38,492 nucleotides of DNA from Candidatus Atribacteria bacterium (lineage in GTDB: Bacteria > Atribacterota > Phoenicimicrobiia > Phoenicimicrobiales > Stramentimicrobiaceae). The stretch lies in NCBI GenBank assembly GCA_016934875.1, contig JAFGSC010000277.1, positions 1 through 38,492 on the forward strand, in the 5' to 3' direction. Position numbers and translations under genes: made by a program. Position 1 is the first letter of the stretch. Each line of letters opens with the position of its first letter. A model generated the notes under the pieces. It searched no databases and was not told the DNA's origin. It saw only the letters and a list, made by a program, of their open reading frames with translations. Positions 687 to 38,212 of the stretch are shown here, piece by piece.

Positions 687-1949
687 TCATTTTAGTAACC
701 ATTTCCAGCAAGGTATAATATTTATCTTGTATCCTTTATAATTAATTTCCTGTTCATCATCATTGGTAATAATTATGCCTTCTTTTATATTTAAATAATT
801 TAAAGCTTCAACCAAACCTTTAATTTCCCTTTCTCTGTTTAAATCGGAAAATTCAAAAGCAATCTGATATACTTCATAGCTTTGATTGTTTTTAACAATA
901 AAATCACAAGCATATTTCTCATTATAATAAAACAATTCACCATATTTTGATAGCTCATTAGCGACAAGGTTTTCTAATAGCCATCCTTTATTACCTGAAA
1001 ATTGAAAAGATATTTTTTGAAAAAAAGCATTATCTATTATATATATTTTTTTTTTATTTGCTAATTGTTTTTTTAGACTAAAATCAAATTTACCTACTTG
1101 TGTTATAAAAAATGTTTGTTCGAGGTAATGGATATAATTTTTTATTGTAACAGAACTTTCAATATCAGTAATGCGTGTTAATGTTCGATAGCTAAAAAGA
1201 TTACAAATATTTGAAATAAGATAATGATATAGCTCCCGCATTGGTTTAACCATTGTAATACCATATCTTATTGCTATATCTTTTAATATTATATCTTCAT
1301 AAATCCGGTATATTATTTCATCAACCTGAAAATTTAAATATTCAGGCATGCCCCCATTCATTAGATATATTTCAAATTCATTTTTTATTATGGCTTTACC
1401 TTTTGGAAGGTATAAACTTTCATTCGCAATATCTATTTCTTTAAACTTAAGATATTCATTAAAAGAAAAAGGATACAAGCTAATATCTACATGCCTGCCA
1501 GTTAATTTTGTTGATATTTCGCTGCTTAATAAATTCGCATTTGAGCCGGTTATAAAAAATTTATATCCTTCATCATTTAAACGCCTTACATAAGTTTCAA
1601 AGTTTTTATTTTGTTGTATCTCATCTAAAAAAATTGTTTTCTTTTCACCAAATAATTCCATCTGGGTTTCAAGAATTACAGAAAATGATTCAGCAGGAAA
1701 ATTAATTAATCGCTCATCCTCAAAATTAATATAGTAAAATTCAGTGTCATTATAGTATTTTTGAATAATTTGCCTAAGCAAAGTTGACTTACCACATCTT
1801 CTTAAGCCTTTTATTACAACTACATGCGGAATTGAAATTATACTACTTATTTGTTCAAGTGCGGTACGGGTTATACCTGGTTTTTTTAATAGTATACTTT
1901 GCCTTTGCTCAATAATAATTTGTTTCAGAAATTCCTTAGAAATATTCAT
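687..1949 (-). CDS. AAA+ ATPase, AAA_14/DUF4143-like (COG1373-type), function unknown
   Basis: 420-aa ORF. Walker A is GLRRCGKST and Walker B-like is IFLDEIQ. The C-terminal ...CDFIV...YQIAFEFSDLNREREIKGL is typical of this family. Confidence 0.8.
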   Translation of the reverse strand: MNISKEFLKQIIIEQRQSILLKKPGITRTALEQISSIISIPHVVVIKGLRRCGKSTLLRQIIQKYYNDTEFYYINFEDERLINFPAESFSVILETQMELFGEKKTIFLDEIQQNKNFETYVRRLNDEGYKFFITGSNANLLSSEISTKLTGRHVDISLYPFSFNEYLKFKEIDIANESLYLPKGKAIIKNEFEIYLMNGGMPEYLNFQVDEIIYRIYEDIILKDIAIRYGITMVKPMRELYHYLISNICNLFSYRTLTRITDIESSVTIKNYIHYLEQTFFITQVGKFDFSLKKQLANKKKIYIIDNAFFQKISFQFSGNKGWLLENLVANELSKYGELFYYNEKYACDFIVKNNQSYEVYQIAFEFSDLNREREIKGLVEALNYLNIKEGIIITNDDEQEINYKGYKINIIPCWKWLLK

Positions 1950-1968
1950 TTTGTTTTATTATAATAAA

Positions 1969-1976
1969 CAAAAATA
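1969..1976 (-). promoter_or_regulatory. Candidate Bacteroidota -7 box (TAnnTTTG)
   Basis: The minus strand reads TATTTTTG, about 20 nt upstream of the ATG at 1949. Confidence 0.35.
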
Positions 1977-2030
1977 CATAAATTGTTTAATCTAATTAAA
2001 CAAAATCTAATTTGTTTTAAAATAAGGGGA

Positions 2031-2130
2031 TAGATGAGTGGAAGAGAAAGAAGGATTATTTGCAGAATTTTTCCTTTGGGTTTTACCACAAAGCACACAA
2101 TGAAGCACAAAGATAATGATTGAACTAACC
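2031..2130. repeat. Composite repeat: GAGTGA-rich tract, four-helix-bundle tail motif and a solo CACAAAG arm
   Basis: GATGAGTGGAAGAGAAAGAAGGATTATTTGCAGAATTTTTC, then TTTTACCACAAAGCACACAATGAAGCACAAAG. It matches 8771-8850 and 10385-10465 in the same order. Confidence 0.6.
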
Positions 2131-2211
2131 CACCTACATCAAAATTACGGTGGACAAGCCTGGCTTTCCCGCCTTAAGCTTGACAAGCTCTTTAATAAGG
2201 GATTAAAACAA

Positions 2212-2243
2212 CCCCCCCGCCCCTCCCGCCAAAGGCGGGACAG
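2212..2243. repeat. GC-rich palindromic (REP-like) unit, diverged relative of the units inside fnlC
   Basis: CCCCCCCGCCCCTCCCGCCAAAGGCGGGACAG with stem CCCGCC/GGCGGG. The minus-strand peptide is CPAFGGRGGG, compared with CPPLAGAGGG in fnlC. Confidence 0.55.
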
Positions 2244-2350
2244 GCTTTTTTATAAGGGGGAATGCCAACTACCAGGATGAAGCATTTATTTTTACTATTA
2301 AAACAATAAGCTAAAATTAAATCCAAAGTTACTTTTACACACGAAAGTAT

Positions 2351-2507
2351 GAGGCTGTCTAAAAAGTCTTTTTCTAACATGATTTGTCATGTTGAACGAT
2401 AGTTAAACATCTCTTATTCAGATATATAGATTACTTCCTTCGGTCATGAGAAAAGGTTCTTCACTACCATTCAGAATGACAAGAAAAGCGACCTTTTAGA
2501 CAGCCTC
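2351..2507. repeat. Nested inverted-repeat element (~157 bp)
   Basis: Outer arms GAGGCTGTCTAAAAAG (2351-2366) and CTTTTAGACAGCCTC (2493-2507) are near-perfect complements. Inner arms 2386-2408 and 2455-2480 pair at about 16 of 23 positions. Confidence 0.6.
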
Positions 2508-2602
2508 TAGGGGGTTATACTTTTTAGGGAACGAAATGCAAGCAAGGTTTGCAGGCCATTTAAAATAGTTCACGATATTGTAAAAAACAAAAATCTAAAA
2601 AC

Positions 2603-2714
2603 CTCCCATTTTCTCACTCTCCCAATACTCATCTCTCACTTTCTCAATTTCCCTCTCACCCTCTCATATTCCCACTTTCTCACAATCCCATCTTCTCACC
2701 CTCTCCCCTCTCAC
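2603..2714. repeat. CTCAC/CTCTC low-complexity tract directly 3' of the DUF354 paralog
   Basis: Runs of TCTCAC, CTCTCAC and CCTCTC. A similar tract lies at 10787-10880 behind the other DUF354 gene. Its reverse complement, GAGTGA-rich tracts, occurs at about 490-530, 2031-2050, 6871-7020, 8745-8790 and 10355-10400. Confidence 0.55.
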
Positions 2715-3830
2715 CTAAAACTTTCCTGGTAATCGGGGTTTTCCCCTGTTCACTGAAGCCTTTGGCGAAGGTGAATTCATTTTCTCATAACTTCCGGGAT
2801 AATTTTCGATGAACCAGACGAGAAATTCAGTTACATTTATCGAATCCTCAAGCATGATTTTTCTTTTGGTTTTAGAATCTCCGATTACATTTTTATCGTC
2901 TGCCAGTGACAAAGCTTTTGAAACAGCCATTTCCTGACCTGCTTCAGAAAGGTCGAATTTGTATAGCAAACCATAGGTTTCTGAAAGCTCTTCCAGGTAA
3001 CCAAGCTGCATATGGGTAGCACACACCGACGGCACACCCAAAACTGCCGCCTCTGCAGCCATCGTAGGGCTTTCACCTATGAACAACGATGCAAAGGCCA
3101 GTGCATGGTGCATCTTTTCCGGTGGCAAAAAAGTACGGTAAGGCTGAAGCTCTTTAATTAAAGGTCCTTCTGAGGAAATATACACCTTTAGATTTTTTGA
3201 TAGTGTTCTAACCAACTTTATCTTATGCTTTTCTGAAAAGCCCGAATAACCTTTATCGTGTAAAGCATTAAAGGCAACAAACCTGATGATGCAATACGGT
3301 TCTTCAGGATTTAAGCCGTTTTCAGATACAATCTTTTTATCAGGTTGAAATACGGCAGGGTGCAGATACGCAAGCTCTTTGAAGCCTTTAAGACTTACCT
3401 GTGACAAAGAAAGCTTTTTTTGAAAACAGGAAGGGACAAGGATCGCGGAACTAAGGTTGCCGGTGATTTTGTGAATCCGGGTTGCTGCTTCGGTATCTGC
3501 GCAGGTAATGGTTTTTTTACGGCATAACCAGCCTGCCAGCACCGCATAAGGTGACTCAAAGCTGAGTATTAATTCTATCCTGTTCTTACGGATAATATTC
3601 AGCAGGATAAAGACTTTTTTGAAAATTCTGAAAACCGCTTTTACACGATTACCAGCCGGAGACCTGCCGGTTGATATAAAGGGAATGGAATATGCCTTAA
3701 GCAATACATGGGTAATATCTTTATCAGTGGCAGTTACAAAAATTTTGTGCCCTTTCTCTTTCAACTGAGCGATAACATGTTTGAATGCATGTGCATACGA
3801 AGGGTGGTTGATGTCGAAGAGTATGGTCAT
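2715..3830 (-). CDS. DUF354 family protein (GT-B-like), diverged paralog of 10898-11959; 3' end frame-shifted by a 31-nt insertion
   Basis: 371-aa ORF. The N-terminus ILFDINHPSYAHAFKHVIAQLKEKGHKIFVTATDKDIT matches the DUF354 pattern and the paralog FDVGHPGQVHQFKHVYWELEKIGWECIFVAKDKDIT. See the finding at 2748-2778. Confidence 0.75.
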   Translation of the reverse strand: MTILFDINHPSYAHAFKHVIAQLKEKGHKIFVTATDKDITHVLLKAYSIPFISTGRSPAGNRVKAVFRIFKKVFILLNIIRKNRIELILSFESPYAVLAGWLCRKKTITCADTEAATRIHKITGNLSSAILVPSCFQKKLSLSQVSLKGFKELAYLHPAVFQPDKKIVSENGLNPEEPYCIIRFVAFNALHDKGYSGFSEKHKIKLVRTLSKNLKVYISSEGPLIKELQPYRTFLPPEKMHHALAFASLFIGESPTMAAEAAVLGVPSVCATHMQLGYLEELSETYGLLYKFDLSEAGQEMAVSKALSLADDKNVIGDSKTKRKIMLEDSINVTEFLVWFIENYPGSYEKMNSPSPKASVNRGKPRLPGKF

Positions 3831-4025: not shown

Positions 4026-5153
4026 TCATGTTAAATTTCGGCGGCACCAAAACTCGAAAAAAGGATCAATAAATTCGGGTTTTTTTTCGAAAAAATCAAT
4101 AATTTCCTTCATCTCAAGCGATTGTTTTAGTCGCTGCACATTTCCTGTTGTCCCGAGATTATATTTTTTTATTACTTCTTTAGATGTCAGCGCTATTTCT
4201 CCTGCTAATATCGCACGCAATAAATTTAATTGAAGGGAGGTAAGGTTTTCAATATCGCGGACATACATAATCCCATTGTAAAGAAATATTTCCTCTATTG
4301 CATTTTCAATTGTTTCATCATTCACTTCTTTATCGGTATTAATAAATACCTGATGTGCGAGTTGTTGTATATAATATGGTTGATTTTGTGCAATTTCGAT
4401 TATTTTCTTTATTAAATCAACCGAAATAATCCGGTCAGATTTTTCAAATGAAGTTTTAATATGGTCAATCCAATGTGATTCTTTTATTTTTGTCAGATAC
4501 AGCATATCGCCGAAACGATAAAACGGCAACGATTGGCTTTGAAAGAGCTCGTTTATTAAATGTCTTTTACTCCCGTAAAGGCAATAACTTACATTTGTAT
4601 GATATTGCCAAACCGAACGAAGTTTTTGCTGAAAAGATATTCCTTCTGATATTTGACTTATTTTTTGAAATTCATCTACACATATTACCATTCTTATTTG
4701 CTTTTTTAAAGCTACTTTTTCGGGAAGGTTCAAAATTTCAGCAAAAGGGACTTCATTATTTTGATATTCGAATTTTATTTTAAAATCATTTACCGGATCT
4801 ACCCCAAAAGAAATTATTGGAATAACCCCTTTTATAAAATTCTTTGCAATATTTGCCCATTCTTCAATTTTACCAGATGATTTTTTTATTACCCGGGTTG
4901 CCAATGCTTCATAAAACTCTTTTTCACTATTAATTGCAAACATATCTATAGAGCAGACTTTTATTTTCTTGTTTTGCTTTTCAGTAACTTCAGCTGCTTT
5001 CTTTACCAATGAACTTTTGCCCCATCTGCGGGGAGAAACAATCATGGTATTGAGCCCCGAAGCAAAATTTGATGATAACCTTTTCACTTCATCCGTCCGG
5101 TTAATAAAAAATGACCCCGAAACAATTTTGCCAAATGAAAATGGAGTTTCCAT
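4026..5153 (-). CDS. P-loop ATPase (Arch_ATPase/AAA-like ATP-binding protein), function unknown
   Basis: 375-aa ORF. Walker A is SPRRWGKSSLV and Walker B is MVICVDEFQKI. Confidence 0.75.
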   Translation of the reverse strand: METPFSFGKIVSGSFFINRTDEVKRLSSNFASGLNTMIVSPRRWGKSSLVKKAAEVTEKQNKKIKVCSIDMFAINSEKEFYEALATRVIKKSSGKIEEWANIAKNFIKGVIPIISFGVDPVNDFKIKFEYQNNEVPFAEILNLPEKVALKKQIRMVICVDEFQKISQISEGISFQQKLRSVWQYHTNVSYCLYGSKRHLINELFQSQSLPFYRFGDMLYLTKIKESHWIDHIKTSFEKSDRIISVDLIKKIIEIAQNQPYYIQQLAHQVFINTDKEVNDETIENAIEEIFLYNGIMYVRDIENLTSLQLNLLRAILAGEIALTSKEVIKKYNLGTTGNVQRLKQSLEMKEIIDFFEKKPEFIDPFFEFWCRRNLT

Positions 5154-9014: not shown

Positions 9015-9713
9015 TTAACTAAGGATTGGAAATTCAAAATACATTTTTAATAACAGAATAGTTTCCTGTTTCAACTTATGCTTTACAAAGTTTTTGAGAT
9101 CAGGATCAACCAATTCACCTAATCCACCTAAAAGCGCAGAGGGTTTTACTTTTTCAATTTTTGAAATACATTGCAGCAGGTATTCTTTAAACTCTTTATT
9201 CATTCTCTGTTCAACAATGGCTTTATTTACAGGGGTTTTTTGCTGCATAAAATAATAAATATCAAAAATATCGCGGTTTGTGAAAACATTTCTGTCTAAC
9301 AAAGCGCATAATTTGTGAGCAAACATATCCGGTTTTTTCATCACATTCATGATAATACCCAGATAATTCTTAGATTCATAACTATCCGGAAACACTCTGT
9401 TTGAAACTTCAATTTTAAGATTACGCTCATGTGCCCCATAATCCAACACCAGCACCAGACCAAAGTATTTCATAGCTTCGTCTCTGATGGCACCATAATT
9501 CTTAAGAATTGACCTGATTTTATCGAATACATACTCACTTCTTTCTTTATCTAAAAGATTAAAGTCAAGGTCAACAGAAAAACGGGGAAGCCCATAAAAA
9601 AGCATTTGCGCAGTGCCGCCCTTAAATCCTAAAGCAGTAGAAAGTTCAATATCTGAAAAAATCTCCTTTAGTATTGATACCAGAAAGAATTTATGTTTAT
9701 TGATGTCAAGCAT
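9015..9713 (-). CDS. abiEii: Nucleotidyltransferase AbiEii/AbiGii-family toxin (DUF1814)
   Basis: 232-aa ORF. The motif GGTAQMLFYGLPRFSVDLDF is characteristic. It overlaps the upstream antitoxin-like gene by 8 nt (ATGCTTGA). Confidence 0.8.
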   Translation of the reverse strand: MLDINKHKFFLVSILKEIFSDIELSTALGFKGGTAQMLFYGLPRFSVDLDFNLLDKERSEYVFDKIRSILKNYGAIRDEAMKYFGLVLVLDYGAHERNLKIEVSNRVFPDSYESKNYLGIIMNVMKKPDMFAHKLCALLDRNVFTNRDIFDIYYFMQQKTPVNKAIVEQRMNKEFKEYLLQCISKIEKVKPSALLGGLGELVDPDLKNFVKHKLKQETILLLKMYFEFPILS

Positions 9714-10275
9714 TTTTAAACATTTTTAATACCCTTTTTTCCAATTCCTTTGATTGGTATAAAACCAGCATTTTCATTATTGATTCTCTGTTCAGGCCAA
9801 GCAAAGAATCAAAATGAAAATTTTTATTAAGATAATTAGTATCCAGGAAGGCCCTCTCGGGAGAGGCAATATTTATCCCGTTCTTTCCACGGTTTATGCC
9901 AACAGCATTGTATAAAACAGGATTTTTTATCTTGCGGTAAACAAGAAAATGCCCGTCAATATCAATGGTACGGCTTAAATAACTTACCAGGGTTATGTTC
10001 GTACTGTATTGAAATATTATTCCGGCTTTTTGTAAAACATATTCGAGAGAAATATACGATGGTGAGTTAACTTTACATGCCAGCTCTTCCGATAAATAGT
10101 CTTCTTTGACATATATTCCCTTTCTTGGATTTCTCAATTTATTTGTTTGCACATAATAATGAATTCTTTGCTTAAGCCGCTTCAATTCGGGAACATTTAA
10201 TAAAAGGGCAATCTCCTTTAATGTGAAAACAGTCCTGCTATCTTTATAAATTTCAAAAATGAAATTTGAACTCAT
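9706..10275 (-). CDS. abiEi: AbiEi-family antitoxin-like protein (type IV TA)
   Basis: 189-aa ORF immediately upstream of, and overlapping, abiEii. The call rests on size and position; the N-terminal region is HTH-like. No search was possible. Confidence 0.6.
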   Translation of the reverse strand: MSSNFIFEIYKDSRTVFTLKEIALLLNVPELKRLKQRIHYYVQTNKLRNPRKGIYVKEDYLSEELACKVNSPSYISLEYVLQKAGIIFQYSTNITLVSYLSRTIDIDGHFLVYRKIKNPVLYNAVGINRGKNGINIASPERAFLDTNYLNKNFHFDSLLGLNRESIMKMLVLYQSKELEKRVLKMFKNA

Positions 10276-10332: not shown

Positions 10333-10377
10333 CTTATTTATTTTGAAGATGGAAAAATGACAGGAGAGAGATGAGAG

Positions 10378-10598
10378 GTGAGCGGTGAGAGTTGAAGAGA
10401 AAAGAGGATTATTTGCAGAATTTTTCAGGGGAGTTTTACCGTAAAACACACAAAGAACAAACAAGGATATACCATTAATTACCCCAAACTCTTTGTGTAA
10501 ACTCTGTGAACTTTGTAACTAAAATAAAAAGAAAATACACCTTCAGACCGGGTATAAAACCTAACGCCTAATACCTAAAGGCCTAACACCAAAACCGT
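10378..10598. repeat. Direct repeat copy 2 (~220 bp) on the 5' side of the AbiE pair
   Basis: See 8758-8992. It contains hairpin 10433-10519 and tail motif 10405-10425. Confidence 0.8.
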
Positions 10599-10599
10599 T

Positions 10600-10776
10600 T
10601 TTTGCCCATGCTTCTGAAATAATTGATGTTACTGACCTTGACGAAAGTTGTAATTAATGGGTTAAAGAATATTTCTCTTCCTTAGGAAAGCTTTTTGTTA
10701 TCTCAAATATCTTCATGGCAAGCTTATATGCCTTTTGATAGACGATCAAATCCCTGAAACCATTAATCTGAGCCAT
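10600..10776 (-). pseudogene. N-terminal fragment of a four-helix-bundle protein gene with an in-frame stop, truncated by inserted repeat DNA
   Basis: The minus strand from the ATG at 10776 reads MAQINGFRDLIVYQKAYKLAMKIFEITKSFPKEEKYSLTH*LQLSSRSVTSIISEAWAKNGF. The F-x-DL-x-V(W/Y)QKA...FPKEE-x-YSLT..SSRSV...AEAW pattern is typical of PF05635. TAA sits where Gln is expected. Similarity stops near 10600. Confidence 0.65.
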
Positions 10777-10786
10777 AACCTGACAA

Positions 10787-10880
10787 CCACTCACCTCTCA
10801 CCTCTCCACTCCCTTCTTTAAGCTTTATGCTTTACGCTCTTCTCCTCCCCCACCTTTCTCCGCCCACTTTCCCCTTTTAT
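10787..10880. repeat. CTCAC/CTCC low-complexity tract between DUF354 and the four-helix-bundle relic
   Basis: CCACTCACCTCTCACCTCTCCACTCCC...CTCCTCCCCCACCTTTCTCC. It is an approximate reverse complement of GAGAGAGATGAGAGGTGAGCGGTGAGAG at 10355-10390. Confidence 0.5.
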
Positions 10881-10897: not shown

Positions 10898-11959
10898 TCA
10901 CCTAAACCTATCCTGGTAATCCGGGTTTTCTTTTATTATCCTCAAGCTATCGGGATAGTTTTCGATGAACCAGACAATGAATTTAACAGGATTAATTTTC
11001 TGACTAATATATTTGGAATGATTTCTTGTTTTGTCAGAAAAACCTGAAATGATTAGTTTTTGAATTTCATTCAAGTTTGTAGTCTGAAATAATAATCCAA
11101 AATCAGATTGTTCTTTTAAATAGCCCATAATCGGTAAAGGATTTATATAAATCACTGGCGTATTAAGGCAGGCTGCCTCAGATGCCATTGTGCCTCCTTC
11201 TCCAATATAAAATGAAGCTTCCTTTAGAATAGAATGAATATGAATTGGATTTATTTGTATCTTGTGATCATGTAATTCTTTAGGCAAAGGACCTTCAGAT
11301 GAAATAAAAACTTTATATTGACTTTTCATAATTTCAACAAGACGAATTTTTTCATCCCATGACATATGTCTTATACCAACATCATGGTGAGCTTTCCATG
11401 AAACAAATCTAATAAGGCAATATTTAGAATTTGCCGGAATTTCTAATAAAGCATAAGGATCAATACTTGGTTTAAAAATATCTGGGTGCAAATAAAACAA
11501 TTCAATATTGCTATCATATTTTATGTGATTCTTACCCAGATTATTATAATATGTTTTTCCGGTAAACTTAATGTCCACGAATGGTATGGTCAATTTATGA
11601 AGTTTTACTGCATGTTCTGTATCTGAAAATCCTATATTAATAATTTTTAGAAGTTTAGAAATATGTCCACTATGAATTGAAAAGCGGTTAAGTATAAAGT
11701 CTGGTTTAAAGTTTTTTACGATTAAATAAAAATTCCAATCATTTCGTGGAACTTGAATAATCTTATTTAACAAACCTTTTCTGGACTCAGATAGTCTGAA
11801 ATAATCTAATTTATACTCTTTTAGTAAATCAATCGTAATATCTTTATCTTTAGCAACAAAAATGCACTCCCACCCTATTTTTTCCAATTCCCAGTAAACA
11901 TGTTTAAATTGGTGAACCTGGCCAGGATGACCAACATCAAAAACAATTCGATTTTTCAT
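10898..11959 (-). CDS. DUF354 family protein (GT-B-like), last gene of the polysaccharide operon
   Basis: 353-aa ORF. The N-terminal DUF354 pattern is FDVGHPGQVHQFKHVYWELEKIGWECIFVAKDKDIT. Its start abuts the stop of the upstream gene. Confidence 0.75.
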   Translation of the reverse strand: MKNRIVFDVGHPGQVHQFKHVYWELEKIGWECIFVAKDKDITIDLLKEYKLDYFRLSESRKGLLNKIIQVPRNDWNFYLIVKNFKPDFILNRFSIHSGHISKLLKIINIGFSDTEHAVKLHKLTIPFVDIKFTGKTYYNNLGKNHIKYDSNIELFYLHPDIFKPSIDPYALLEIPANSKYCLIRFVSWKAHHDVGIRHMSWDEKIRLVEIMKSQYKVFISSEGPLPKELHDHKIQINPIHIHSILKEASFYIGEGGTMASEAACLNTPVIYINPLPIMGYLKEQSDFGLLFQTTNLNEIQKLIISGFSDKTRNHSKYISQKINPVKFIVWFIENYPDSLRIIKENPDYQDRFR

Positions 11960-34071: not shown

Positions 34072-35310
34072 TCATGTTATCCCATGCCACCTGTTCGATA
34101 AACCTGCCAGTCCCTGTATCAGTTTCAAAACCCTCCACGATGTATCGTTAATTGAATAATCTGCCACATTGTTATTGTATTTTCGTGACCTGTGTTCAGC
34201 AATGGCTGTTTCAATACTGTTTAAAACTACATCTTTGTTAAACCCTGTAAGAATAATAGTTCCGGCATCCTGTGCTTCGGGGCGTTCCATGGAGTTACGC
34301 AGCGAAATTGCCGGGAAGCTCAGAATAGCCGATTCCTCGCTGATGGTGCCGCTGTCGCTGATGGTGCAGGCAGCATGCATTTGGAGGGCTACGTAGTCGG
34401 TGAAGCCAAACGGTTTTAAGAACTGTATCATATGCTGTTGACTGCCGGGTTGTCCACCCCCTGCCCCCGCCAGCGGGGGACATTGTTCAGATTTGGCAGA
34501 CTGCTGACTACTATTTAGTTCTTCGATGCGTTTTAGGGTACGAGGATGGGTGGAGACAATTACCGGGTAATTATATTTTTCCACCAGTGATTCGAGTATA
34601 GCAAGTATGTTTTTCAGGTTCTCGGGATTGTCTACGTTTTCTTCGCGGTGGACGGAAACGATGAAATATTTACCGGGTATAAGTCCACCCCCTGCCCCCG
34701 CCAGCGGGGGACAGTTTTCAGCAAGATTAATATCTTTAAGGATAGTAGAGGTATCGATTTTGGGACGGTAATAATCCAATACTTCCTTCATGGGTGAACC
34801 GGTGAGGTAAATTCTTCTGTGGGGCAAGCCTTCGCTTAATAAGTGCCGGCGGGCATGCTCGGTATATACCAGGTTGAAATCGGCAATATGGTCTATAATA
34901 CGCCGGTTTATTTCTTCGGGTACATTAAAATCGAAACAGCGGTTACCTGCCTCCATATGAAAAATAGGTATATGCAATCTTTTGGCCATATATGCAGCCA
35001 GGCATGAATTTGTGTCACCCAGCACCAGCACAGCATCGGGCTTTTCTTTTTTAAGCACCTCTTCAGATTTGCGTATGATGTCGCCTACTGCGGCACCCAG
35101 CGATGAGGTGTCCACATTCAGAAAATAATCGGGTTTGCGTATTTCAAGATCCTTAAAAAAAATCTCGTTTAACTCGTAATCGTAGTTTTGCCCGGTATGT
35201 ACCAGAATATGGTTTGTATATTCATCCAGCCGCGCCATTACGCGCGAAAGACGTATGATTTCGGGGCGCGTGCCGAGGATTGTAAGGATTTTGAGTTTAT
35301 TTGTTTTCAT
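34072..35310 (-). CDS. fnlC: UDP-2-acetamido-2,6-dideoxy-L-talose 2-epimerase (FnlC/Cap5G/WbjD type, non-hydrolysing UDP-GlcNAc 2-epimerase family) carrying two in-frame repeat insertions
   Basis: 412-aa ORF with ILGTRPEIIRLS, LVLGDTNS, MEAGNRCFD..VPEEINRR, HREEN, STHPRT and ISDSGTISEE. It lies in context with fnlA and fnlB. Confidence 0.8.
   Translation of the reverse strand: MKTNKLKILTILGTRPEIIRLSRVMARLDEYTNHILVHTGQNYDYELNEIFFKDLEIRKPDYFLNVDTSSLGAAVGDIIRKSEEVLKKEKPDAVLVLGDTNSCLAAYMAKRLHIPIFHMEAGNRCFDFNVPEEINRRIIDHIADFNLVYTEHARRHLLSEGLPHRRIYLTGSPMKEVLDYYRPKIDTSTILKDINLAENCPPLAGAGGGLIPGKYFIVSVHREENVDNPENLKNILAILESLVEKYNYPVIVSTHPRTLKRIEELNSSQQSAKSEQCPPLAGAGGGQPGSQQHMIQFLKPFGFTDYVALQMHAACTISDSGTISEESAILSFPAISLRNSMERPEAQDAGTIILTGFNKDVVLNSIETAIAEHRSRKYNNNVADYSINDTSWRVLKLIQGLAGLSNRWHGIT
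34452..34482. repeat. 31-nt GC-rich palindromic unit inside the fnlC coding sequence (copy 1)
   Basis: GTCCACCCCCTGCCCCCGCCAGCGGGGGACA, identical to 34683-34713. It is translated as CPPLAGAGGG. Confidence 0.9.
34683..34713. repeat. 31-nt GC-rich palindromic unit inside the fnlC coding sequence (copy 2)
   Basis: Identical to 34452-34482. It is translated as CPPLAGAGGG. Confidence 0.9.
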
Positions 35311-35320
35311 AATTATGGTT

Positions 35321-35362
35321 CTCGCGGAGTCGCGCAGAGTTTGACGCAGAGTTCCACAGATT
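35321..35362. repeat. Inverted-repeat flank R of the GxxExxY cassette
   Basis: CTCGCGGAGTCGCGCAGAGTTTGACGCAGAGTTCCACAGATT is an imperfect reverse complement of 35769-35809. A paralogous copy lies at 35865-35898. Confidence 0.65.
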
Positions 35363-35383
35363 TAAATGCAAAGTAGTGCAAAT

Positions 35384-35761
35384 TTATAATTTATTCACGA
35401 TACGAACTATTCCATCTTTCATAGAGGAAACATTAAAATTCATAAGTAACCCAAGTTTTTTATCTGCCAGTTTTAAATAAGTAAGCAATTGTTTATGATG
35501 TACATCTAACAAAGTTTCAACGGATTTAATTTCAACAATTACCAAATCATTTATTAATAAATCTATGCGATAACCAATATCCATTTTAATGGTATCATAT
35601 ATCATAGGCAGTCCCACTTGTGTTTGAACTACCAAACCTTCCTTTTTAAGTTCATGTGCAAGCGCAACTTCATACGAAGATTCGAGTAAACCAGGTCCCA
35701 ACACAGTGTGGACTTTAAATGCGGCTCCTCTAATGGTATATGATAATTGATTTTCCTTCAT
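35384..35761 (-). CDS. GxxExxY protein (PD-(D/E)xK, PDDEXK_3/TIGR04256-like)
   Basis: 125-aa ORF with the GLLESSYEVAL (G-x-x-E-x-x-Y) and DLLINDLVIVEIKSV (D...E-x-K) motifs. Confidence 0.85.
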   Translation of the reverse strand: MKENQLSYTIRGAAFKVHTVLGPGLLESSYEVALAHELKKEGLVVQTQVGLPMIYDTIKMDIGYRIDLLINDLVIVEIKSVETLLDVHHKQLLTYLKLADKKLGLLMNFNVSSMKDGIVRIVNKL

Positions 35762-35768
35762 CTGTTTT

Positions 35769-35809
35769 CTGCGTCACTCAGCGGTTAACTCTCCGTGCCT
35801 CTGCGAGAG
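35769..35809. repeat. Inverted-repeat flank L of the GxxExxY cassette
   Basis: The sequence is CTGCGTCACTCAGCGGTTAACTCTCCGTGCCTCTGCGAGAG. Its reverse complement matches 35320-35353 at about 25 of 34 positions. Confidence 0.65.
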
Positions 35810-35819
35810 CTGCAAGGCA

Positions 35820-36000
35820 TGAATTGTGAGCATTTTGAGTTTATTTGTTTTCATAATTATGGTTCTCGCAGAGTTGCGCAAAGTTTAACGCAGAGTACCG
35901 CTGTTTATTTATTTATAAATTATTTACCATTCGAATGATACCATCTTACATTTATATTTTCTGCGAAACTCAGCGGTTAACTCTGTATAACTCCGCGAGA
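35820..36000 (-). pseudogene. Decayed tandem copy: fnlC 5' relic, flank R, 12-codon GxxExxY relic and flank L
   Basis: 35832-35869 is identical to 35288-35325 (38 nt, including ATGAAAACAAATAAACTCAAAAT). The relic M*DGIIRMVNNL* corresponds to MKDGIVRIVNKL*. Flank L copy 35961-36000 corresponds to 35769-35809. Confidence 0.75.
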
Positions 36001-36004
36001 CATC

Positions 36005-37123
36005 TTATACCTCTTCATAATAAGTATCCTGATCATCAGGGTTGAAAAACTCATTTATCCAGAAAATAGTGTACAGTTCTTCGTTTCCGGTGTTAGTTAT
36101 ATTATGAGTGTACCAGATAGGCATATCAACATAAGATGGCTCATTTCCATCCAGGTCAAAATTTAAAACTTCAGATGTTCCGATCCTTCTTAATTGAATT
36201 CTTGCTTTACCTTTAATTACAGCAAACCTTTCAATTTTTCGTGTATGAAAATGGTTGCCACGTGTAATACCCGGTTTGGTTGTTGAAAAAGATATTTGCC
36301 CGCCCAGTTGTGTCTTAATGGTTTCAACAAAAGTGCCCCTGTCATCGGTGTTTAGTTTTAGTCTTACAGGGTAATGGTTTCCAATGTCTATATAACACCT
36401 GAAAGTATTGAACAGGTTGGTATCAAAACGATCGTTTAATTCAGGGAACATTCCATTATCAAAATACTGTTCCTTGTAAGCACTGAGCTTTCCCAGGATG
36501 TCAGTAACTTTTATTTCCGAGGTATGATTTATCCTGCACTCTGCGAGTGAAAACTGATAATGAATTGCTTTCCAGATTTCCTGTACGAGTTCTCCTACGT
36601 AAATAAGTTTTAGCTGCCCGTCAATTTCAATTTTAGGTTCTTCGTTATGGGTAAGCTGGTGGCAAAATGTAGCAACCACCGAATTATAATACGGGTTGCC
36701 AAAAGGGCCGAAGACATTGGGTATGATAAACCCTGTAAAGAGAGTCTGGTTTTTATTGGCCCATTCAGTAAGCATCTTTCTTCCTTCAAGTTTCGATTTT
36801 CCATACAGGTTATCCCTTTCTTCCTGTGTAGACGAGGCAAACAATATATGCGGTTTTGAGCCGGTATCATCAAGCGCCTGTAAGAGTTGCCTGACCAGCC
36901 TGATGTTGGTATCATAAATAGCCTGAGGGTCATTATGCCTGTTCATTGCTGCCAGGTGGACAATTACATCGCATTGTTTTACAAATTCCTTAAGCTTTTC
37001 ATGGTCAGAAAAAAATTCATCACGAAAAGGTATCCGTGTAACTTCGTCTTTCTTAAGTCCAAGAAAATTATACAGATGGGTGCCTATAAACCCGGACTGA
37101 CCGGTGATGCCGATAGTTATCAT
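36005..37123 (-). CDS. fnlB: Bifunctional reductase/epimerase of the UDP-L-FucNAc pathway (FnlB/CapF/WbjC type: N-terminal SDR plus C-terminal cupin)
   Basis: 372-aa ORF with GITGQSGFIGTHL at the N-terminus and a cupin-like RGNHFH...NTGNEE at the C-terminus. It lies between fnlA and fnlC. Confidence 0.8.
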   Translation of the reverse strand: MITIGITGQSGFIGTHLYNFLGLKKDEVTRIPFRDEFFSDHEKLKEFVKQCDVIVHLAAMNRHNDPQAIYDTNIRLVRQLLQALDDTGSKPHILFASSTQEERDNLYGKSKLEGRKMLTEWANKNQTLFTGFIIPNVFGPFGNPYYNSVVATFCHQLTHNEEPKIEIDGQLKLIYVGELVQEIWKAIHYQFSLAECRINHTSEIKVTDILGKLSAYKEQYFDNGMFPELNDRFDTNLFNTFRCYIDIGNHYPVRLKLNTDDRGTFVETIKTQLGGQISFSTTKPGITRGNHFHTRKIERFAVIKGKARIQLRRIGTSEVLNFDLDGNEPSYVDMPIWYTHNITNTGNEELYTIFWINEFFNPDDQDTYYEEV

Positions 37124-37171: not shown

Positions 37172-38212
37172 TTAAGGTTCGTAGGTAAGTGCTGATTCTT
37201 GTTTCAGGACATCTTCCCTTATAAAATTAAGTTTTAACAGCAATTGTTTTGTTTCATCAACATTTAGCCGCTGGGTATTGTGTGAAGTGTATTCGTTGGC
37301 TGAAGACACCTCAGATTCCCCTTCAGAGACAAATTTATTGTAATTCAGGTCGCGGGTATCGGCAGGTATCCTGTAATAGTTTTTCAATTCGGTTGCTTTA
37401 GCCATCTCTTCCCTGTTAACAAGTGTTTCGTATAGTTTCTCACCATGCCGGGTGCCGATAATTTTTACCGGTACATCTGACTTATAAAGCTCTTTGAGCG
37501 CCTGTGCCAAGTCAGCAATGGTTGATGCAGGTGATTTTTGAACAAAGATGTCTCCATTAGCGCCATTTTTAAATGCGAAAATAACCAGTTCAACCGCATC
37601 ATCTAATGTCATCATAAAACGGGTCATATTGGGATCGGTAATGGTTATGGCTTCGCTTTTTTTAATCTGGTCAACAAAAAGCGGTATTACCGAACCCCGT
37701 GAAGCCATGACATTACCATATCTTGTCCCACAGAATACCATTCCTTTGCTGTTAAGGTGCCTTGATTTTGCCACCATTACTTTTTCGCTGAGCGCTTTTG
37801 ACATCCCCATAGCATTAATAGGGTACACTGCCTTATCGGTACTAAGTACTATCACTTTTTTCACACTATGTTGTAAGGCAGCATCCAATACATTTTCACA
37901 CCCCAAAACATTGGTCCTTACAGCTTCTGCCGGAAAGAATTCACATGAAGGGACCTGTTTCAGGGCTGCCGCATGAAAAACATAATCTACCCCTGCCATT
38001 GCATAATCAATACTGTTGCGGTCTCTTACATCACCGATATAATATTTAATCTTCGGGTTTTTATAGAACTGCCGCATATCGTCCTGTTTCTTTTCATCGC
38101 GGCTGAAAATTCGTATTTCCCCGATTTCGGTGTCAAGGTACCTTCTCAAAACAGCATTGCCAAAAGAACCTGTACCACCTGTTATTAACAATATTTTGTT
38201 CTTAAATTCCAT
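37172..38212 (-). CDS. fnlA: UDP-N-acetylglucosamine 4,6-dehydratase/5-epimerase (FnlA/CapE/WbjB type)
   Basis: 346-aa ORF with ILLITGGTGSFGNAVLRRYLDT, IRIFSRDEKKQDDMR, HAAALKQVPSCEF and LSTDKAVYPINAMGMSKA (S-M-K triad region). Confidence 0.9.
   Translation of the reverse strand: MEFKNKILLITGGTGSFGNAVLRRYLDTEIGEIRIFSRDEKKQDDMRQFYKNPKIKYYIGDVRDRNSIDYAMAGVDYVFHAAALKQVPSCEFFPAEAVRTNVLGCENVLDAALQHSVKKVIVLSTDKAVYPINAMGMSKALSEKVMVAKSRHLNSKGMVFCGTRYGNVMASRGSVIPLFVDQIKKSEAITITDPNMTRFMMTLDDAVELVIFAFKNGANGDIFVQKSPASTIADLAQALKELYKSDVPVKIIGTRHGEKLYETLVNREEMAKATELKNYYRIPADTRDLNYNKFVSEGESEVSSANEYTSHNTQRLNVDETKQLLLKLNFIREDVLKQESALTYEP

Follow-up and report, generated by a model that had tools for sequence, protein, structure and literature searches.

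The window analysed here is a stretch of 38,492 nucleotides (nt), positions 1 to 38,492 of contig JAFGSC010000277.1, from an assembly labelled Candidatus Atribacteria. Its last few thousand positions hold genes of an fnl operon, and between two of them, fnlB and fnlC, lies an insert of 680 nt, which is our subject. It contains an intact gene of the GxxExxY family, the remnant of another copy of that gene, a duplicated start of fnlC, and four arms, called L on the 5' sides and R on the 3' sides, that are approximate reverse complements of each other. We read this insert, with a probability of roughly 0.6, as a tandem pair, one member intact and the other internally deleted, of a promoter-less, hairpin-bounded gene cassette that colonised the short spacer between fnlB and fnlC. 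Table 1 gives the layout; FnlA and FnlB are named "-like" because their scores fall below the NCBIfam equivalog cut-offs.

Table 1. The insert, in the order of its coding strand, with its host genes and a second cassette of the window (HMM, hidden Markov model; ORF, open reading frame; aa, amino acids).
Feature	Positions	Strand	Details and evidence
FnlA-like gene	37172-38212		HMM
fnlB/capF-like reductase gene, host gene upstream of the insert	36005-37123	minus	stop at 36005; HMM
Arm L2, outer 5' arm	35957-36000	minus	begins 4 nt past the fnlB stop; TCTCGCGGAG..CAGAG..CGCTGAG..CGCAGAAAA
Relic, last 12 codons of a GxxExxY gene	35911-35951	minus	M*DGIIRMVNNL*; translation
Arm R2, 3' arm of the decayed copy	35864-35906	minus	within the 84-nt direct repeat
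Duplicated fnlC start	35823-35863	minus	9-nt spacer (35863-35855) and first 32 nt of fnlC; ATG at 35854
26-codon ORF from the duplicated fnlC ATG	35774-35854	minus	MKTNKLKMLTIHALQLSQRHGELTAE*; crosses arm L1; stop 12 nt before the GxxExxY ATG
Arm L1, 5' arm of the intact cassette	35765-35808	minus	ends 5 nt before the GxxExxY ATG; repeat comparison, folding
Intact GxxExxY gene, 125 aa	35384-35761	minus	HMM, motifs, predicted structure
Arm R1, 3' arm	35320-35362	minus	9 nt separate it from the real fnlC ATG (35310); repeat comparison, folding
fnlC-like UDP-GlcNAc 2-epimerase gene (WecB/FnlC-type), host gene downstream of the insert	34072-35310	minus	TIGR00236, 230 bits, above cut-off
Second cassette of the same class, decayed	10353-10826	minus	arms 10786-10826 and 10353-10389, GAGAGGTGA-type tandem units

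Direct repeats relate the two members of the pair. Arm R together with the fnlC start (35279-35362 versus 35823-35906) is repeated over 84 nt with 88% identity and an offset of 544, the two L arms are 82% identical over 44 nt, and the relic is 80% identical to positions 35382-35422 over 41 nt. An initial annotation of the window had proposed this succession of elements, and repeat comparison and translation find every one of them at the coordinates that it gave, including the perfect identity of 35288-35325 with 35832-35869. A run of 38 nt without mismatch inside the 84-nt alignment has p of about 0.016, and the identical block spans exactly the initiation region of the duplicated fnlC start, whose likeness to the real gene stops at about nucleotide +32. 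The tandem copies differ by 12-20%, and the duplication is therefore not an assembly artefact.

Each arm is made of 3-4 tandem units of about 11 nt, of the type CGCAGAG(T), set in inverted orientation on the two sides, and the arms end in TTCTCGC or GCGAGAA, depending on the side: no match to these arm patterns is expected in shuffled sequence. The complementarity of L and R, already described as imperfect, amounts to 74-76% across 38-41 nt. The simplest history would have two steps: a tandem duplication of the segment formed by L, the gene, R and the first 32 or so nucleotides of fnlC, followed by the loss, in the upstream gene copy, of everything but the last 12 codons. The left breakpoint of the duplication falls exactly at the outer end of L. 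An ordering of the events based on the four arm combinations was dropped: although L2:R1 is the most stable of them, the position-by-position differences are contradictory.

The predicted folds agree with the proposal that the flanks could form a long stem, and they are better than those of shuffled controls: z = -3.3 for the RNA of the intact cassette and z = -5.6 for the relic hairpin (35855-36004), each closed by an L:R stem. The possible arm duplexes have energies of -55.6 kcal/mol (L2:R1), -47.6 kcal/mol (L1:R1), -44.3 kcal/mol (R2:L1) and -43.1 kcal/mol (L2:R2). In the minimum-free-energy fold of the whole 711 nt, L2:R1 is the outer pair and R2:L1 the inner pair. The prediction thus closes all of the insert into a single domain, at the base of which the fnlB stop (at a distance of 4 nt) meets the fnlC start (at 9 nt). 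Between 35000 and 36300, no match to a ribosomal RNA (rRNA) or to any other Rfam family rises above noise; sigma-70 promoters and intrinsic terminators between 34900 and 36300 are no more frequent than in shuffles, in scans that do not cover promoters of the Bacteroidota type.

The GxxExxY cargo protein

The family assignment made by the initial annotation is borne out by two models, both above their curated cut-offs: the 125-aa protein matches TIGR04256 with E = 1.4e-40 (138.2 bits for a cut-off of 35) and PF13366, or PDDEXK_3, with E = 1.7e-39 (135.2 bits for a cut-off of 22). Its motifs are G24-L-L-E27-S-S-Y30, which is the GxxExxY signature, D67, E77-x-K79 and Q91-xxx-Y95; across 63 homologues, E27, Y30, D67, E77, K79, Q91 and Y95 are invariant. 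The AlphaFold model has a pLDDT of 93.5. The top Foldseek matches in the Protein Data Bank (PDB) are all PD-(D/E)xK nucleases, at weak scores (best E 1.8e-3, TM 0.5-0.6), the best fold neighbours being Cas4 SSO0001, alkaline and lambda exonucleases, and tRNA-splicing endonucleases. By sequence, the protein has no relative in the PDB, and a search of PHROGs gives no match. Looked up as an exact sequence, it has no record, although P0001, from this same contig, is identical to it.

With the Cas4, RecB and lambda-exonuclease domains the protein has in common the fold and the motifs E, D, ExK and QxxxY. It differs from them in having only 125 residues, no CRISPR context and no cysteines, so that it can hold no Fe-S cluster. 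Both model and motifs indicate that the cargo is a predicted nuclease, a minimal, cysteine-free PD-(D/E)xK protein of the Cas4/RecB/lambda-exonuclease type with its catalytic motifs intact. A known defence system was considered and found unsupported: the PADLOC search returned weak Cas4 matches only, with E of about 0.006.

PF13366 is listed as a family of unknown function (PMC3424549). The family is large, since 17,628 clusters at 50% identity match at E <= 0.001. Members of 266-295 aa (P0121-P0127 and others) carry two GxxExxY domains, and may be fusions of tandem cassette copies. To our knowledge, no function is known for the GxxExxY proteins, nor for the four-helix-bundle proteins found in the intervening sequences (IVS) of 23S rRNA. 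It was with these sequences that the GxxExxY family had been associated at first, as their best known cargo; a paper on them names another protein, the four-helix-bundle S23p or 23S_rRNA_IVP (here IVP), PF05635 (PMC4990558).

Turnover at the fnlB-fnlC junction

A metagenome scan with FnlB yields 80 loci, and 65 fnlB-fnlC junctions were compared; here and below, the loci of this and of other searches are labelled by L and three digits. The lengths of these junctions are bimodal: 24 of the 65 measure 5-31 nt, and 18 of the 65 measure at least 216 nt. The short ones are A/T-rich and free of hairpins, so we regard them as empty sites. Because relatives have such empty sites, the insert is not simply a vertically inherited gene of the operon, and the first description of it as a mobile or selfish cassette with a nuclease cargo can probably stand.

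Several kinds of occupants are found. GxxExxY genes are present at L088, L113, L126 and L133, in addition to L001-L004 and L007, which other searches had yielded; IVP genes at L093/L094 (E 5e-39) and at L120, L140, L141 and L151 (representative E 6e-15); and a solo hairpin, with no gene, at L092 (of the TTCTCGCAGAG...GCGAGAA type), at L090 and L130 (CACAGAG units) and at L106. The other contents are a PIN toxin module (L122) and ordinary sugar genes. Pairing of the flanks separates the cassettes from the ordinary genes: z ranges from -2.6 to -7.9 for GxxExxY and IVP cassettes, with -1.8 for L113, a probable pseudogene, and is about 0 for the ordinary genes, which have no arms.

The turnover can be followed inside a single clade, in which fnlB has 78-84% nucleotide identity: it comprises a GxxExxY cassette (L088), solo hairpins of two types (L090 and L092) and an IVP cassette (L093/L094). 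The difference between L088 and L092 is exactly one unit of 531 nt, hairpin plus gene, between two hairpin copies, which is the pattern that would be expected if the solo hairpin is the scar of a gene loss. The comparison shows, at the level of sequence, a gain-and-loss element: absent from many orthologous junctions, and replaced in close relatives by a solo hairpin or an IVP cassette. At L093, a leftover 3' arm of the CGCAGAG/GCGAGAA type (4290-4346) is found downstream of the IVP cassette, whose own arms have TGGTGACT units; this suggests that one junction can be occupied successively by different cassettes. As a separate observation, the fnlB-fnlC junction of L122 (3161-3915) contains a PIN-domain toxin gene (PF01850, E 3e-16) with a small ORF ahead of it, and the fnlA-fnlB junction of the same locus (1278-2041) a small ORF without family match: fnl junctions therefore also gather toxin-antitoxin-like genes.

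The GxxExxY gene itself is under strong purifying selection (pN 0.10 versus pS 0.65-0.69). When the window is compared with L001 and L007, the cassette gene has pS of 0.60-0.69, versus 0.78-0.87 for fnlB and fnlC, flanking values that are saturated; the lower figure suggests a more recent common ancestry of the cassette.

Distribution and co-evolution of the arms

A scan of one genome per species adds 80 further GxxExxY loci. Most belong to Bacteroidota, including isolates of Hymenobacter, Algoriphagus, Runella, Chryseobacterium and Terrimonas and many metagenome-assembled genomes (MAGs); the remaining ones come from Balneolaceae/Rhodohalobacter and from single MAGs labelled Chlorobiota and Armatimonadota. 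Cultured carriers include Hymenobacter duratus BT646 (L009), Rhodohalobacter halophilus (L034) and Algoriphagus halophilus SOCE003 (L038). Arms are present at nearly all of these 80 loci, and many Hymenobacter copies have near-perfect inverted repeats of 40-50 bp that leave gaps of 0-6 nt to the start codon and 0-7 nt to the stop codon. Over 607 kb of loci, the density of unit clusters is 1.19 per kb up to 500 nt from the gene and 0.033 per kb in the other 483 kb, a 36-fold enrichment. Duplexes between the two flanks of one locus have a mean energy of -60.8; when flanks of different loci are paired the mean is -42.4, and with shuffled sequences it is -36.3.

The unit core CGCAGA(G/T), with its variants CGCAAAG, CGCAGGG, CACAGAG and CGCCAAG, goes with the protein clade of the window across phyla; distant GxxExxY paralogues and IVP cassettes have other units, which measure 8-13 nt. 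It follows that the arms are a property of the element, not of the site that it occupies in the host. A helical-phase argument for the 11-nt unit was dropped in view of these 8- to 13-nt units. Taken over all loci, the arms accompany the gene from phylum to phylum, and their complementarity is preserved.

What was unexpected is the manner in which this complementarity is kept. Eleven cassettes of the Hymenobacter type share a stem of 40 pairs, 96% of which are paired, and 19 of the pairs have changed on both sides (58 cells); none of 500 shuffles does as well, and sliding the structure leaves 40-56% paired. In our own tally of the per-pair table, transversions make up about half of the double changes and G·U pairs are rare. 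Counting arm mismatches at 34 loci gives 40 of the G·U type in the sense RNA versus 47 of the A·C type (p = 0.52). Read side by side, L013 and L015, which we take as orthologous from their similar flanks and whose genes are 85% identical, have most of their arm differences mirrored in the other arm. Arm pairing is, as these patterns indicate, actively maintained by something that treats both strands alike: the lack of a G·U bias in the sense RNA argues against selection on the polycistronic transcript as the sole cause of the complementarity. The strand symmetry points to a process at the DNA level, perhaps a switch of template or the conversion of one arm by the other, or else to a role as a DNA hairpin or cruciform.

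Tandem copies and relics are not particular to the window. Locus L005 has four near-identical tandem GxxExxY units (1423-3378, with a period of 526 nt) between wza-like and wzc-like genes, and L006 has two (1106-2009), with gene copies 99.7% identical to those of L005 and similar flanks: the two loci differ by a recent copy-number polymorphism. An N-terminal and a C-terminal relic are found in L001, two C-terminal relics in L038, and hairpin arrays in L012, L058 and L086. These cases, compared as sequences, show cassettes that are prone to tandem amplification and internal deletion.

The neighbours of the further loci are varied, and a preference for polysaccharide loci was rejected as a rule, with GH3/beta-lactamase, AMP-ligase, amidohydrolase, Hdr-like Fe-S protein, M28 peptidase and LutB genes among them. 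Orientation could be scored at 69 loci: both neighbours are co-oriented with the cassette gene at 40, and both are opposed to it at about 13. In nine hairpin-rich loci, no Rfam family reaches its gathering score. At Hymenobacter loci such as L009 (3985-4000 and 4379-4395), the 5' arm has AAAGGAGG at its inner end, a few nucleotides before the ATG; this motif pairs with CCTCCCTTT, right after the stop codon, so that a Shine-Dalgarno-like motif would be sequestered in the closed stem. As for the window itself, its fnl genes, cassette and arms have their nearest relatives in contigs of Bacteroidota type though the contig is labelled Candidatus Atribacteria, and its bin assignment may be wrong.

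The window also holds the second cassette listed in Table 1, between a DUF354-like gene (10898-11959) and an ORF of 189 aa (9706-10275). It encloses the remnant of a truncated 23S_rRNA_IVP gene (about 10654-10775; PF05635, E 8.4e-9) and, further inside, a solo hairpin with CACAGAG/CACAAAG units (about 10430-10520), and its fold has z = -3.2. A repeat of another sort is found in fnlC, on the minus strand: two exact copies of a G+C-rich element of 31 nt, TGTCCCCCGCTGGCGGGGGCAGGGGGTGGAC, at 34452-34482 and 34683-34713, lie in frame and add "CPPLAGAGGG" peptides. The L001 orthologue of fnlC lacks the element, with alignment gaps of 14 and 17 aa; it looks like a short repeat tolerated inside the coding sequence.

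Competing explanations and what the cassettes mean

If the insert is a pair of hairpin-bounded cassettes, its mode of life might be the following. A strand-symmetric process at the DNA level would keep the arms complementary, for instance template switching, or conversion of one arm by the other, on single-stranded DNA that folds into hairpins. The repetition of the arms would also be the cause of the duplications, and of the deletions by which solo hairpins arise. Transcription of the cassette would come by read-through from the host operon; in RNA, the arms would then close the insert into a fold-out domain, bringing the fnlB stop and the fnlC start together, and the closed arms would occlude the start site of the cargo and limit expression of the nuclease. 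RNase III could plausibly cut the stem, by analogy with rRNA intervening sequences. As for the window, its duplicated fnlC start may have taken on a new role, in opening L1 and coupling translation into the nuclease gene.

Several observations weigh against reading the insert as a mobile cassette pair. Among about 100 copies, no two with at least 85% nucleotide identity lie in different contexts, so no transposition event was caught; the cassette encodes no recombinase and contains no transposase; and the architecture is common to two unrelated families of cargo, so that mobilisation may be due to an enzyme other than the cargo. Outside the arms, no target-site duplication is seen by eye (GATG at 36001-36004 versus ACCATAATT at 35311-35319), a comparison that was not systematic, and in Hymenobacter the flanks beyond the arms are complementary, not direct. 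The arms of the window have a duplex energy of -49.8, near the cross-locus control of -40.6; given this and their modest complementarity, the window copy may be decaying. No other arms of the CGCAGAG type were found in the 38-kb window. The roughly 13 loci that are antisense to both neighbours mean that dependence on operon read-through is not universal. The lower synonymous divergence of the cassette gene is suggestive only, and all the steps at the RNA level, namely read-through, the stem in vivo, cleavage by RNase III, the translational lock and leader-ORF coupling, are ones that we infer.

A different origin would be that of a free-standing homing-endonuclease gene: the GxxExxY nuclease would cut the cassette-free allele, or hairpin-free spacers, and be copied in from an occupied allele by recombinational repair after horizontal DNA transfer, with arms that serve mainly as a translational lock silencing the nuclease. 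The presence/absence polymorphism between conserved genes, the intact catalytic motifs, the arms that abut the start codon and the reduced synonymous divergence of the cassette gene are all compatible with this, as is the fact that cassette proteins of distant hosts at the same junction are 83-85% identical when FnlB and FnlC are 65-66% identical. The free-standing seg and mob genes of T4-like phages are similar nuclease genes between conserved genes, with the same type of polymorphism, and they can exceed their flanks in conservation, as the cassette may; long complementary arms are not known as a feature of theirs. However, in contrast to seg and mob, one protein clade occupies many unrelated junctions, which a site-specific enzyme does not explain, the four-helix-bundle cassettes share the architecture without a nuclease, and the strand-symmetric upkeep of the arms and their build from tandem units would be left unexplained; we consider homing unlikely. 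The insert might instead serve the host as an RNA processing module, with an incidental ORF, in which cleavage by RNase III determines how stable, or how well translated, the fnlAB message is relative to that of fnlC. A long interrupted duplex does close the insert, the cassette is co-oriented with the operon, and there is a precedent in the RNase III excision of stem-bounded intervening sequences from rRNA (PMC4990558). Against this, many relatives do with a spacer of 5-31 nt, the content of the junction turns over inside a clade at about 80% nucleotide identity, the sense strand has no excess of G·U over A·C, the ORF is under strong purifying selection, and the element exists in unrelated operons, sometimes antisense to its neighbours: such a module is distinctly improbable.

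The existence of gene-less hairpins and arrays (L039, L092, L012, L058, L086) could also mean that the hairpins are independent REP- or MITE-like repeats of intergenic spacers, which the GxxExxY gene merely adjoins. This would be very surprising in view of the 36-fold enrichment beside GxxExxY genes, of a unit core that follows the cargo clade across phyla while other cargo has other units, of the relics in hairpin loops, which show that solo hairpins arise by gene loss, and of the ordinary genes that sit at the same junctions without arms. Finally, promoter-less ORFs with hairpin units in co-oriented tandem arrays, as in L005, bring to mind the gene cassettes of integrons with their attC-like hairpins, and the tandem copy might also be a product of the assembly. 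Both ideas are scarcely credible here: the TTCTCGC/GCGAGAA ends with periodic units appear unlike the R- and L-box ends of attC sites, no attC model having been run, and the cassettes are scattered singly in many operons instead of being arrayed at one attI site; as to an artefact, the copies differ by 12-20% and the tandem-plus-relic pattern recurs in independent assemblies.

Known systems share parts of the architecture. In REP/BIME sequences and their RAYT genes, a gene is flanked by inverted hairpin-forming short repeats, and gene-less hairpins occur in intergenic spacers within operons. The cassettes likewise have a gene between inverted hairpin-forming repeats, and gene-less hairpins too; they differ in that their cargo is not a Y1 (IS200-like) transposase and that their arms are arrays of tandem units 40-50 nt long. 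Transposons with terminal inverted repeats appear unlike the cassettes on the features looked at.

The closest likeness in plan is with the 23S rRNA IVS of Coxiella, Leptospira, Xanthomonas and Brucella, which also consist of a small ORF in a long inverted-repeat stem loop. These stem-bounded elements are regarded as selfish and prone to decay, and are excised by RNase III; that of Coxiella has tandem GACAGAT heptamers in variable number next to its ORF, in the same way as short tandem units adjoin the ORF in the cassette arms (PMC4990558). The cassettes depart from them in several respects: they lie between protein-coding genes of an mRNA operon and not in a 23S helix, their arms co-evolve strand-symmetrically, apparently at the DNA level, and the cargo at the fnl insert is a PF13366 PD-(D/E)xK protein, PF05635 being the cargo of sister cassettes and of the second cassette of the window. 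Being outside rRNA and having a different cargo, the element is therefore not filed as an IVS, though it is IVS-like in architecture. The analogy drawn by the initial annotation is not supported where it went through the GxxExxY cargo, and holds through the PF05635 cassettes, which have the same arm plan at fnl junctions and in the window: their presence at the same junctions links IVS and GxxExxY cassettes.

One may go further and conjecture that a single, so far unrecognised class of mobile elements has two types of cargo, GxxExxY (Cas4/RecB-like) and 23S_rRNA_IVP (Avd-like four-helix-bundle) genes. Each element would be a long hairpin with tandem-unit arms whose loop carries a compact ORF, settling where an extra fold-out RNA domain is tolerated, as at the tips of rRNA helices or in short intercistronic spacers. 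Strand-symmetric copying of DNA would maintain the arms, loss of the gene would leave solo hairpins, and the nuclease, with hairpin or cruciform DNA or else empty sites as its substrate, would drive gain, loss and tandem amplification. This conjecture is tentative, and we hold it at well under even odds.

In the literature searched, with database curators' comments outside the search, this architecture is not described outside rRNA; GxxExxY is mentioned in only 3 of about 8 million papers, and in none of them as the cargo of rRNA IVS. Hairpin-bounded gain-and-loss cassettes in ordinary operons are a widespread and apparently undescribed class. It extends the concept of the rRNA intervening sequence to ordinary operons, and two families of "hypothetical proteins", GxxExxY and 23S_rRNA_IVP, become one testable class of elements, with one architecture and competing for the same intercistronic sites. 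Cassettes, solo hairpins and relics lie within polysaccharide operons and others, and this can have effects on the expression of operons, on locus typing and on annotation.

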